In this document: piece by piece, positions 35,906 to 38,644 of the stretch
Layout: each line of letters starts with the position of its first letter
How positions within the stretch are numbered: position 1 is the first letter of the stretch
Assembly (NCBI GenBank): GCA_035575925.1
Contig: DATLXK010000070.1
Location: forward strand, 1,406 to 65,405
Direction: 5' to 3'
Source: Sphingobacteriaceae bacterium
GTDB taxonomy: Bacteria > Bacteroidota > Bacteroidia > Sphingobacteriales > Sphingobacteriaceae
DNA length: 64,000 nt
Notes under the pieces: generated by a model
What the model was told of the DNA's origin: nothing
Databases searched by the model: none
Seen by the model: the letters and a program-made list of their open reading frames with translations, nothing else
Made by a program: the position numbers and the translations under genes

Positions 35906-36202
35906 TTATTTTAACAACCCCACATGCAACAATAAACCTAATGCCGGTGAATGTGTGCGGGGTACATAAGGTTTGAAGTTTGCCGTTTTAAAGTCATTTA
36001 GTTCTTTATAAGCCATCAAAACTCCTTTTAAATCCATTTTCCAATTTTTACCTGATGATTTTCTTATGAAGTTCATGGATGAACCGATAATGGAAATTAC
36101 TTCGTATTGCTTTCCTCTAAGACTTTTAAAAGTTTTTAAAGGCATTCCCAAATCAGAGAAATCGCTATAGGTGATTTTTGGCTGGCTCTTTTTATAGTTC
36201 AT
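35906..36202 (-). CDS. Hypothetical 98-aa protein (no family recognised)
   Basis: ATG-initiated ORF. Its start overlaps the stop of the hsdS 3' relic in the way an operon partner would. Confidence 0.45.
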   Translation of the reverse strand: MNYKKSQPKITYSDFSDLGMPLKTFKSLRGKQYEVISIIGSSMNFIRKSSGKNWKMDLKGVLMAYKELNDFKTANFKPYVPRTHSPALGLLLHVGLLK

Positions 36203-36350
36203 TTCTATTTAAGTTGTACGCTGTCTCCCCCTCTGCAACCATTCCCAATGTCTCCTCAACTTCTTTATAAGCCCCAGCAACCTTTACCTGCCCATTCATT
36301 AACATAGGCAATAACCAATCTCTTAAGGAAGCTAGTTCTTGGTTTTGTTC
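36192..36350 (-). pseudogene. Relic of an hsdS 3' end (last ~52 codons)
   Basis: It translates as EQNQELASLRDWLLPMLMNGQVKVAGAYKEVEETLGMVAEGE..., preceded by an in-frame TAG. Bases 36224-36350 match 37342-37468 (the 3' end of the intact hsdS) at about 90%, including a 47-bp identical core. Confidence 0.85.
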
Positions 36351-36381
36351 CTAAATACTTTTGTTTTAATGCACTTACCTA

Positions 36382-37317
36382 TTATGAAACACCAACCTGT
36401 TTTATAAACTCATTCCATATCTTTTCGGCTATTTGTTTGTCGGTTAGTGGTTCTTCACCTCGGGAATGCATAACATTTCTATGCTCCCAATAAAGACTAT
36501 AATCATCTTGTTGGATTGAAAATGTCTTATCTAAGCTTATTGTATTCTGTGGTAGTTGTTGCGTAAAACTGTAACTTAAATCCCCTCCAAATCCAAAATT
36601 TTCTCTTCCTAAACAATACACGGTGATATAGGCATCTTTAAGATTACCTTTGTTGGAAATCAAACAGCTAAATACTTTCTTTTCTTCTTCTAAAAATCTT
36701 CCTTGGAGATTTTCTATTCCATTAAATTCGGCTATGGCTGCTTTAAAATAGTTTTTAATGCTCTCAAAGCTTTCCTCCTTAAAATCTAATATATCAACTT
36801 CAGTGAATATTTTTTCAGCTTTGTAATTTCTGCCAAATGCTACCGGATGAGTACTATAAACAGATTTTTCATCTAAACGAACCAAATTTCGGGAAAGTAA
36901 TTTTCGAAATTCTTGAGTGATATTTAGAAATGCAGTATTTATATTTTGCCAGTCTGCGACTGGTTTTCCATCGGTTGGAAGAGCTTTGAATTCTTTAAAC
37001 GGGGTTGCCAACCATTCGCACGGCTCGACAATAATTGGAACAATGGTTATTTCCCCATCTTTAAACATTCTAAATGCATGATTAAATTCTTTTTCATAGC
37101 AATAATAGGAAGCGATATATTCTGGGCTTAACATAGCAACAAACAAGTCGGAACTTGTTAAATTATCTAAAATTTCTTTATCTAAAGAAGTACCAGCCAC
37201 AAGTTCCTGGTCTGTCCATGACGATAATAACTTCTCTCTTTTTAAATTAGTTAAATGGATTTCTAATTTATCTAACATCGCCTTATCAGCATGGCTATAG
37301 GAAATAAATGCTTTCAT
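36382..37317 (-). CDS. TIR-domain protein with an uncharacterised ~170-aa C-terminal domain
   Basis: N-terminal FISYSHADK...LFVAMLSPEYIASYYCYEKEF fits the bacterial TIR_2 pattern (candidate catalytic Glu E75/E77). The start codon lies 1 nt after the hsdS stop. Confidence 0.8.
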   Translation of the reverse strand: MKAFISYSHADKAMLDKLEIHLTNLKREKLLSSWTDQELVAGTSLDKEILDNLTSSDLFVAMLSPEYIASYYCYEKEFNHAFRMFKDGEITIVPIIVEPCEWLATPFKEFKALPTDGKPVADWQNINTAFLNITQEFRKLLSRNLVRLDEKSVYSTHPVAFGRNYKAEKIFTEVDILDFKEESFESIKNYFKAAIAEFNGIENLQGRFLEEEKKVFSCLISNKGNLKDAYITVYCLGRENFGFGGDLSYSFTQQLPQNTISLDKTFSIQQDDYSLYWEHRNVMHSRGEEPLTDKQIAEKIWNEFIKQVGVS

Positions 37318-37318
37318 G

Positions 37319-38644
37319 TTATTTAGTTAATTTATAGTCAACTTCCCCCTCCGCAACCATACCCAATTTTTCCTCAACTTCTTTATAAGCCTCAACAACT
37401 TTTACCTGCCCATTCATTAACATAGGCAATAACCAATCTCTTAAGGATGCGAGTTCTTGGTTTTGTTGAGAATTATTCAAGATTTTTTGAAAGATGTTGT
37501 CAATTTGTAGATTGAAAGTTTCCAATATTTTAGATTCTGGAAGAATAACATTAAAACTGATTAATACTTGCTGATTAACGTTTTGCATTATTGTACCATT
37601 TGACTGACTGGTTATGTTTTTCTCAAAATCCTTTAGATTGAAATATAGCAAGTTTAAATTTTCAATATTAGTGACTGTGAGACAGATAATAAAGCCACAG
37701 TAGATAGTATTGGTTTTGTAACCTCTTATCAATCTTGTAGCACCAGGTGTTCCACTTCTTGCGATTATTATTGACCTATCATCAACCAAATATTTATTAA
37801 TTTCTATCTGATTTAATTCGAGTTCATCTAGGTATTCGTTTTCTATAAAAATAGTTGATTTGGAAATGTTCCTAACATTTATAATTCTAGCTAGACTATC
37901 TCCTTTTTCTTTTGGGTTATAATTAATTCCGTTTTTAAAAGCAGATAAATCCCCCAAATTCTTCACCTCCCACCCCTTCGGAATCTCTCTTTTCAATACC
38001 TCATCATAAATCATTTCGCCACCTGATGATTTATAAGGTTTACCTTCTGCATTCGGAAAATCAAACTGCACAAACCAATAGTCATACAAAGTTTTGGCTA
38101 TTGCCTCTAACTCTGCATTGATTTTATTGTTCAGCTCTATTTTATCGTCCAAAGCGGAAAGAACTTTTACAAGCAAATCTTGCTGGTTCCTTTTTATTAA
38201 CGGTATTGGACAGTCAGCAAATGTTTGAGCATTAATATTCCCTCGAGTACTTCCAGTAGATAAGTTTTTTACCCATTGTTTGTACTCCTCACTAATAGTG
38301 AAATACTTTAAAAATTTCGGATTTACCTTATTATAATCAAGACCATATTTTATTAAGAAACCTGCGAAGGCTAATACACCATTTTTATCCTCGTGAAAAT
38401 ATGTTCGACCCGTAGAATTTCCTGTTCGGGCGAATACAATATCTCCATCGTTTAAAATGTACTTATCTAAATCGTCTGACGAAACGGATTTTTTATCATT
38501 GTTAAGCAGATTTCCTTTATCATCTATATCACTTATTCTAAGGTATCTTACTTTTTCCTCCGAAAACTTCTCTGCAGATGCAGGAATGCCGTATTTACCA
38601 ATGTGTTCAGGCAAGCATAGTTCTCTAAGTCTAACTTTCTTCAT
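37319..38644 (-). CDS. hsdS: Type I restriction-modification specificity subunit
   Basis: 441 aa with two target-recognition halves separated by conserved helices (NAELEAIAKTLYDYWFVQFDFP; NQELASLRDWLLPMLMNGQVKV). Confidence 0.9.
   Translation of the reverse strand: MKKVRLRELCLPEHIGKYGIPASAEKFSEEKVRYLRISDIDDKGNLLNNDKKSVSSDDLDKYILNDGDIVFARTGNSTGRTYFHEDKNGVLAFAGFLIKYGLDYNKVNPKFLKYFTISEEYKQWVKNLSTGSTRGNINAQTFADCPIPLIKRNQQDLLVKVLSALDDKIELNNKINAELEAIAKTLYDYWFVQFDFPNAEGKPYKSSGGEMIYDEVLKREIPKGWEVKNLGDLSAFKNGINYNPKEKGDSLARIINVRNISKSTIFIENEYLDELELNQIEINKYLVDDRSIIIARSGTPGATRLIRGYKTNTIYCGFIICLTVTNIENLNLLYFNLKDFEKNITSQSNGTIMQNVNQQVLISFNVILPESKILETFNLQIDNIFQKILNNSQQNQELASLRDWLLPMLMNGQVKVVEAYKEVEEKLGMVAEGEVDYKLTK

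Follow-up and report, generated by a model that had tools for sequence, protein, structure and literature searches.

A duplicated hsdS tail around a TIR gene as a probable displacement scar in a mosaic type I restriction-modification operon

In a type I restriction-modification (R-M) operon of a Sphingobacteriaceae bacterium, a TIR gene related to ThsB of Thoeris lies between two direct copies of the 3′ end of hsdS, the gene for the specificity subunit. The operon is part of a 64,000-nucleotide stretch of contig DATLXK010000070.1, which we refer to as the window and whose numbering is used throughout. Three kinds of described systems resemble this arrangement. First, displacement of rhs tips has been proposed to proceed through a circular intermediate that recombines by homology (Jackson et al. 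2009, PMC2935791), and homology-facilitated illegitimate recombination has been invoked for effector displacement in type VI secretion systems (T6SS) (Kirchberger et al. 2017, PMC5361080). Second, in the pneumococcal tvr locus (SpnIV), direct repeats of ~70 bp at hsdS 3′ tails bracket a segment with non-R-M genes (Kwun et al. 2018, PMC6265443). Circular intermediates have been shown for this locus, including those from a slow route at long repeats that depends on neither the recombinase nor RecA (PMC6265443). Third, insertions with long target duplication (Nobusato et al. 2000, as related by Furuta, Abe & Kobayashi 2010, PMC2853133) involve genes that have no mobility gene and are flanked by direct repeats of more than 30 bp, and their mechanism is given there as unknown. 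We propose that the duplicated tail in the window is a recombination, or “displacement,” scar in a mosaic R-M operon, and we assign this reading a probability of roughly 0.7.

The likeness to displacement is the closest. In C-terminal displacement of Rhs, CDI (contact-dependent growth inhibition), and T6SS proteins, as in the window, an intact gene is followed by directly oriented, 5′-truncated fragments of its conserved part, each of which has a different downstream module. New modules likewise enter beside the live gene, and older ones are pushed downstream. However, the conserved segment in our case is the very end of the gene, and the modules are separate, complete defense open reading frames (ORFs) rather than fused toxin tips, with no immunity-gene logic. 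Relic length is also capped at ~145 bp, unlike in Rhs systems, because homology ends at the second target recognition domain (TRD2). The direct repeats of tvr are located in hsdS 3′ tails, as are those of the window, but the tvr segment includes the TvrR tyrosine recombinase, a toxin-antitoxin pair, and TRD sequences and serves phase variation of specificity. The window has a TIR gene alone between the repeats, with no recombinase and no spare TRDs.

A repeat search of an 8-kb region yielded a single outstanding direct-repeat family, in which positions 36206-36349 match positions 37324-37467 over 144 nt at 88% identity with a spacing of 1118 bp. This match is far beyond chance. The remaining repeat families are 20 to 55 nt long and 70 to 82% identical, with the exception of one 22-nt family that is located inside the hsdS-tail repeat. 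A first-pass annotation of this DNA had described 127-bp direct repeats with 12 mismatches, a 47-bp identical core, and a repeat unit of 1118 bp. Base-by-base counting between 36224-36350 and 37342-37468 gives exactly these values, and the repeat continues to 144 bp. The longest identical run between the copies is the 47-bp core (36283-36329, equal to 37401-37447), which encodes ...LRDWLLPMLMNGQV..., a part conserved across all alleles. This core is predicted to be the only segment of sufficient length for efficient homologous exchange. No tail copies other than these two are present in the source genome.

The right copy (37324-37467, minus strand) is the live one and corresponds to the conserved C-terminal tail, or last 48 codons, of an intact 441-aa hsdS (37319-38644, minus strand; Pfam Methylase_S in two stretches, E=8e-21). 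The left copy (36192-36349, minus strand) is a 5′-truncated relic of a former hsdS tail, as the first-pass annotation had held. Its open frame comprises only 52 codons, with no start and no TRD sequence, and reads EQNQELASLRDWLLPMLMNGQVKVAGAYKEVEETLGMVAEGETAYNLNRNEL between two stops, the first of which is an in-frame TAG directly upstream. Homology of the two copies to each other and to the tails of other genomes starts at position 36349. The 32-nt junction that separates this point from the TIR stop (36350-36381, minus strand) contains three stops in the relic frame. Each tail also meets the next gene as had been described: the ATG of TIR is 1 nt away from the stop of hsdS, and the relic, which ends with a stop at 36192-36194, overlaps a small gene called ORF98 by 11 nt, counted from its ATG (36200-36202). 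A role for the relic as a functional peptide was ruled out, given that it has no start codon and that other relics carry stops or frameshifts. We found no terminators in the relic that might account for its retention. A sigma-70 promoter scan of the relic gave background levels, and the sigma-70 model does not apply to Bacteroidota promoters.

Comparison with related operons indicates that the two tails come from different hsdS lineages. Homologues of ORF98 led us to Daejeonella lutea (L012/L026/L076) and Desertivirga arenae (L027/L087), both of which have the gene order hsdR-hsdM-hsdS-ORF98 with one tail only. These species represent other genera, not conspecific strains. Their HsdR and HsdM proteins are 86 to 92% identical to those of the window, and hsdRM of D. 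lutea is 83% identical at the nucleotide level. The intact hsdS of D. lutea (L012) overlaps ORF98 by 11 nt, the same as the relic does, and in Desertivirga the hsdS stop just precedes the ORF98 ATG with a gap of 4 nt. The same relic-ORF98 unit is present in D. rubra (L011/L093) with no hsd genes found in its flanks, where it is truncated ~25 nt further in. The 3′ part of the window relic matches the ORF98-linked alleles of D. lutea, D. rubra, and Desertivirga, and its signature (VAG..., YNLNRNEL, and the overlapping ATG) is that of the ORF98-linked allele type. Because the intact hsdS/ORF98 junction of D. lutea has the same 11-nt overlap, the relic is what is left of an hsdS that was natively followed by ORF98. 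The exact ORF98 protein is also encoded by two short Logan metagenome contigs, neither of which spans the junction: one breaks off within the 47-bp core, and the other terminates upstream of the ORF98 start codon by 31 nt.

A family-wide search with the tail protein led to a further genus, represented by the Sphingobacteriales metagenome-assembled genome (MAG) SVL1_sbin.2 (G278; L052/L078). This genome is collinear with the window at 83% nucleotide identity from hsdR through a DUF3800-ORF151 gene pair (PDC-M04) to a relic of hsdM that is described below. Beyond that relic, it continues with hsdS-ORF171-TIR-HipA_2 and has a single tail and no hsdS relic. The hsdS genes of the window and G278 are 91% identical at the nucleotide level in the central conserved region and 86% identical in the tail, and both window tail copies are 86 to 89% identical to the G278 tail. 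Because of this, the 88% identity between the two copies is ordinary between-allele divergence rather than a sign of recent duplication, and such normal similarity is uninformative on the age of the event. The live tail groups with the alleles of G278 and a second genome, G116, and the relic with the ORF98-linked alleles, at the informative sites on the 3′ side of the identical core; on its 5′ side, few informative sites are available for locating a switch point (Campbell signature).

The window therefore combines two operon types that are found separately elsewhere, and it is a graft in which an hsdS-TIR block stands before the tail of an hsdS-ORF98 locus. The first-pass annotation had suggested that loci of these two kinds were joined by homologous recombination. 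The joining itself is borne out, since hsdS-TIR (G278) and hsdS-ORF98 (D. lutea and Desertivirga) configurations both exist, and related loci, albeit of other genera, are polymorphic for TIR. However, a second tail copy could not arise from simple crossing-over of one tail with another, and this part of the suggestion needs correcting.

The arrangement is not confined to the window. A 37-nt tail core, GAGAYTGGTTATTRCCNATGYTAATGAATGGRCARGT, was scanned against two public collections, which yielded 38 species-level genome loci and 69 metagenome loci. The genome loci are mostly from Bacteroidota (Flavobacteriales, Sphingobacteriales, and Bacteroidales), together with a few MAGs labeled otherwise. 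Second tail copies were sought by tblastn with tail peptides and by nhmmer with a tail profile. A downstream second tail on the same strand was found in 11 loci: L057 (Polaribacter), L059 (Winogradskyella), L064 (SCB49), L075 (Algibacter), L081, L083 (Gillisia), L099, L132, L138, L143, and L156. Among 63 other non-redundant loci that have the tail core and whose sequence extends downstream from the tail by 1.5 kb or more, a relic is present in 10, and the window and L143 come on top of these. Across Sphingobacteriia, Flavobacteriia, and metagenomes, roughly every sixth locus of this hsdS family bears the scar.

The recurrent scars have several properties in common. All 14 relics are in direct orientation, and none of the 14 includes recognizable TRD sequence. 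The relic start overlaps the last cargo stop or lies within ~30 nt of it in 12 cases, and the gaps in the other two are 56 nt (L138) and 114 nt (L156). With GATTGG as the reference point, the 5′ ends of the relics are spread between -45 and +3 nt, a range of ~48 nt. The cargo is of a defense or toxin type and consists of one to six genes co-oriented with hsdS, including TIR (in the window), GIY-YIG, AbiV, a set resembling HipA_2/DUF3037, a WHH/colicin-DNase protein, small membrane proteins, and proteins of unknown function. Repeat identity reaches 90% over 110 nt in L057 and 89.7% over 117 nt in L064 and is lower for decayed relics; many relics carry stops, frameshifts, or heavy decay. In several instances, the relic and its next gene are collinear with the tail and next gene of cargo-less relatives, as in L143 versus L123 (91% over 687 nt), L057 versus L077, and L059 versus L085. 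L143 has a relic of another, short tail type, with 91% identity to L123. Cargo families are also located directly 3′ of single tails in other loci and thus make up a shared pool of hsdS-adjacent modules.

The likeness to displacement thus holds in the window and 11 other loci, with the relic and ORF98 reproducing the D. lutea junction just as the L143 relic and its next gene reproduce L123. The proposal, made from the window alone, that the conserved HsdS tail is a site for swapping or stacking downstream defense cargo is supported by these 11 further tail-cargo-tail loci. Our literature searches found no description of hsdS-tail relics flanking defense cargo. The scar is apparently an undescribed recurrent variant of the “displacement” and “long target duplication” kinds.

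Some individual loci have additional features. In L083 (Gillisia limnaea, oriented 1470-3040), two relics (1857-1976 and 2997-3037) are present in series behind hsdS, and they set a 106-aa ORF apart from two GYF-domain membrane proteins, which makes this a two-cassette polarized array. In L075 (Algibacter mikhailovii, oriented 3915-4850), the cargo ORF runs in frame into the relic at a common TGG (GW|LL...), which looks like a microhomology join. The cargo of this locus belongs to a 264-aa family whose junctions differ between L075 and L081. In L138 (oriented 4064-6338), one AbiV is encoded behind the live hsdS and another, truncated to 129 aa, behind the relic, so that both recombining loci had AbiV directly 3′ of hsdS. 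Orphan tail relics lie between unrelated genes in Pedobacter sp. R20-19 (L070/L124) and D. rubra (L093), with no hsdS, hsdM, or hsdR in the fetched flanks (4 to 8 kb upstream), and the scar can therefore outlive its R-M system. In five loci (L041, L043, L045, L047, and L051), hsdS encodes ~640 aa, of which ~200 aa follow the conserved tail, which suggests a C-terminal extension or fusion. The order hsdM-hsdS-[0-2 variable genes]-McrB-McrC is common in the hsdS family (L038-L042, L048, L026, and L027), which makes the interval from hsdS to McrBC a hypervariable position for cargo.

We propose that the scar in the window formed when a block comprising the present hsdS and the ThsB-like TIR gene was placed before the last ~145 bp of an older hsdS. 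The body of the older gene would have been lost, and its conserved tail, now dead, would have been pushed downstream together with the overlapping ORF98. Formation most likely involved homologous pairing in the tail, because the conserved tail alone offers DNA homology in the interval from the hypervariable TRD2 to the variable downstream cargo and because the join sits at its 5′ edge. Duplication of the tail needs either a circular intermediate or an illegitimate join, and we infer two possible routes. In route (a), a circular tail-plus-cargo intermediate would have integrated by a single crossover. In route (b), illegitimate joining would have been anchored by homology, with the heterologous flank trimmed to the border of homology. 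Regardless of the route, the locus is a chimera of two operon types with its junction at the 5′ edge of the tail, and the pattern is recurrent and polarized.

A second scar in the same operon bears on the choice between these routes. A 51-codon ORF (38631-38786, minus strand) represents the remains of an hsdM 3′ end and overlaps the start of hsdS; it has 47% amino acid identity to HsdM residues 495-537. The PDC-M04 pair is located between the live hsdM and this relic. In an alignment with D. lutea, the live hsdM resembles the D. lutea gene as far as the motif AAGATGCAGGG and departs from it thereafter (40066-40185 region), whereas the relic is divergent before AAGATGCAGGG and D. lutea-like after it. 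A single crossover between a resident hsdM and an incoming hsdM fragment with cargo would be expected to leave a reciprocal hybrid of this kind, which favors circle integration (route a) for the hsdM event. The hsdM scar is conserved in G278 (L052 10836-10994) and, being present in two genera, is old and stable. The process that shaped the hsdS tail thus seems to have acted on hsdM as well. In another locus (L107, raw 11560-12713), the PDC-M04 pair (64% and 60% amino acid identity) is found not between hsdM and hsdS but ~1.6 kb downstream of the latter, and the same cargo can therefore fill either slot.

Several observations weigh against the displacement reading. There are no relatives at strain level, and the three same-genus genomes lack the TIR gene, ORF98, and the window-type hsdS tail, so that an empty or occupied allele of precisely this locus was not encountered. 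No source of the TIR gene was found, its best homologue being 60% identical and the TIR protein of G278 43% identical. At L064 and L156, and almost at L057, no other tail among ~120 is closer to either copy than its partner at the same locus, a pattern that would also fit in situ duplication or gene conversion. Finally, a purely illegitimate join does not explain why 14 of 14 relics start at the tail edge with cargo ends abutting, which keeps a more specific, if unlikely, mechanism alive.

One rival explanation, which develops the reading of the first-pass annotation, is an active cassette that needs no recombinase of its own. The tail and TIR gene would leave as a 1.1-kb circle by RecA recombination and re-enter any hsdS of the family by a single crossover, with the tail as the docking site. 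The sequence of the window is compatible with the excision step. The two copies are direct and in register, and a crossover within the 47-bp identical core of the 144-bp, 88% identical repeat would give an in-frame hsdS that ends in ...NGQVKVAGAYKEVEETLGMVAEGETAYNLNRNEL and overlaps the ORF98 ATG in the manner of D. lutea. In E. coli, roughly 25 bp of identity is required for RecA-dependent exchange, which falls off sharply as sequences diverge. Homologous recombination in the core that deletes TIR and rebuilds hsdS-ORF98 is therefore possible but should be rare. The cassette would also account for the recurrence of the architecture with varied cargo, the two-cassette array, and the reciprocal hsdM hybrid. 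The same logic underlies models for rhs tips (PMC2935791), and circles from repeats at hsdS tail ends have been shown in pneumococcus (PMC6265443).

The other loci speak against such an element. No cargo has the same cargo/tail junction in two loci, as is evident for the 264-aa family of L075 and L081. The many relics with stops and frameshifts have persisted without excision, and near-identical copies are present in no locus, the best pairs being ~90% identical. The hsdM scar that accompanies PDC-M04 in two genera likewise argues against frequent excision. The tail core is absent from viral contigs, and we also rejected a phage vehicle on this basis. Moreover, the cassette leaves the origin of the first cargo/tail junction unexplained. 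We consider an active cassette unlikely, and there is no sign of a dedicated or frequent excision mechanism in these sequences; the TIR unit is not a demonstrated mobile cassette. A broader version of this idea is equally doubtful. It supposes that the hsdS tail, and likewise the hsdM tail, is the portable homology handle of a recombinase-free form of gene capture, in which circles of a tail plus a defense gene would move between cells, dock at any hsdS of the family, and build polarized, integron-like arrays. The sharp relic border would then mark where the intermediate was processed at the border between homology and heterology.

Much less probable is in situ insertion with long target duplication, in which the one resident tail would have been duplicated upon insertion of the TIR gene, through staggered breaks and fill-in or through slippage, after which the copies diverged. 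The window resembles the class described in PMC2853133 in that the insert has no mobility gene, the direct repeats (144 bp) exceed 30 bp, and the repeated sequence is single copy in uninserted relatives, here D. lutea and Desertivirga from other genera. Furthermore, the copies in L064, L075, and L156 carry lineage-specific features in common. However, the published cases are whole R-M systems with copies that are near-identical to their target, whereas in the window the insert is a defense gene within an R-M operon, and its flanking copies, at 88% identity, are different alleles. The relic carries the ORF98-linked signature and the live tail the G278/G116 signature, and the relic of L143 is a different, short-type tail with its match in L123, all of which argues against this explanation.

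The least probable explanation, a tyrosine recombinase that acts in trans on a core site in the tail in a tvr-like or integron-like manner, would make the tail an attachment site and could draw on the direct orientation of all relics, their start at the tail edge, the compact, promoterless cargo in the same orientation as hsdS, and the ~11-bp core repeat of tvr (PMC6265443), but it is contradicted by the ~48-nt spread of relic 5′ ends, by the same kind of scar at the unrelated sequence of the hsdM tail, by the absence of a recombinase between the repeats and among the island ORFs scanned against Pfam (where only a relaxase fragment was found), by a tail that forms no hairpin, and by conservation of synonymous sites in the tail that is barely above that of hsdM. 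With respect to the last two points, folding of the tail DNA was no better than that of shuffled controls (z +0.1 to +1.1), and codon identity at amino-acid-identical positions is 0.60 for the tail core, 0.52 for hsdM, and 0.62 for the central conserved region. These values are not strong evidence for a DNA-level site conserved beyond coding constraint. An integron gene cassette was rejected because there is no integrase among the annotated island ORFs and no attC-like hairpin in the tail, and inspection by eye gave no convincing dyad for a dif/Xer-like site.

Returning to the displacement scar and its cargo, the TIR gene (36382-37317, minus strand) encodes a 311-aa ThsB-like protein with a Y4lF-type C-terminal domain (Pfam TIR_2, 2e-16). 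It matches PADLOC ThsB1 over its full length (1.4e-50, residues 3-306), and PF27176 is listed for an identical database protein. It is the sole ORF of at least 62 aa between the repeats; ORFs of 54 and 61 aa are located inside TIR on the opposite strand. The cargo is thus ThsB-type, as in Thoeris, but an adjoining ThsA effector gene is absent, with hsdS and ORF98 as the neighbors of TIR. Another contig of the source genome (G000:C40:7801-8247, L167) contains a SIR2_2-domain open frame of 353 aa, which is a possible partner of the orphan ThsB-like TIR. A search of 60 relatives for the TIR gene gave distant TIR matches only. TIR homologues with 43 to 60% identity adjoin type I hsd genes in four of six loci examined, and the nearer ones (54 to 60%) are found in varied defense contexts with no tail repeats. 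Because the TIR start is 1 nt past the hsdS stop, TIR is probably promoterless cargo that is co-transcribed with the hsd operon as an added defense layer.

The complete gene order, all on the minus strand, is hsdR, hsdM, DUF3800, ORF151, the 51-codon ORF, hsdS, TIR, ORF98, and Fic. The genes hsdM (539 aa, 40066-41685; Pfam N6_Mtase) and hsdR (1045 aa, 41686-44823) together occupy 40066-44823 and are 83% identical at the nucleotide level to those of D. lutea and G278. The PDC-M04 pair (38911-40062) consists of a 231-aa DUF3800 protein (39367-40062; Pfam DUF3800; PADLOC PDC-M04A, 2.5e-71) and ORF151 (38911-39366; PADLOC PDC-M04B, 4.9e-53). Accessory defense genes that are co-oriented and tightly coupled with hsd genes are known from other type I R-M operons, as with PrrC in EcoprrI (PMC12707154) and the PADLOC PDC candidates found by embedding, to which PDC-M04 in this operon belongs. 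In that literature on defense genes in R-M operons, a duplicated hsd gene tail was not found as a footprint.

ORF98 (35906-36202, minus strand) is a small gene of unknown function that is natively located 3′ of hsdS and has no Pfam or PADLOC match. In D. lutea (L012 6312-7028), D. rubra (L011 6315-7007), and Desertivirga, it is followed by a gene for 230 to 241 aa with a weak Cthe_2314-like HEPN match. This usual partner is absent from the window, where SoFic is found instead, and ORF98 may therefore be the orphaned half of a two-gene module. The operon, which is followed by the Fic gene (34612-35736, minus strand), lies in an island of ~15 kb beside tRNA-Glu (34448-34520). The island is bounded by 245-bp direct repeats with 97 to 99% identity (34534-34778 and 49354-49597), which include the 3′ end of the Fic gene. 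In addition to SoFic, it holds a second Fic gene, HipBA, and a 106-aa relaxase fragment (MobA/VirD2, 45138-45458), and no integrase was found among its annotated ORFs.

Taken alone, the window provides a modest result, namely a real and well-explained scar. Its wider relevance is that the ways in which defense genes nest in or stack behind R-M operons are poorly understood, and “guilt by embedding” is a main route by which new defense systems are discovered. The duplicated hsdS tail is a readable footprint of one such route, which marks the exact boundary of the cargo and tells which side is older. It also provides a search rule for candidate defense genes: a live tail followed by a dead tail on the same strand. 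The scar extends the displacement logic of Rhs and T6SS toxins to R-M operons, and it makes testable whether homology alone, without an integrase, drives a cassette-like turnover of immunity genes.

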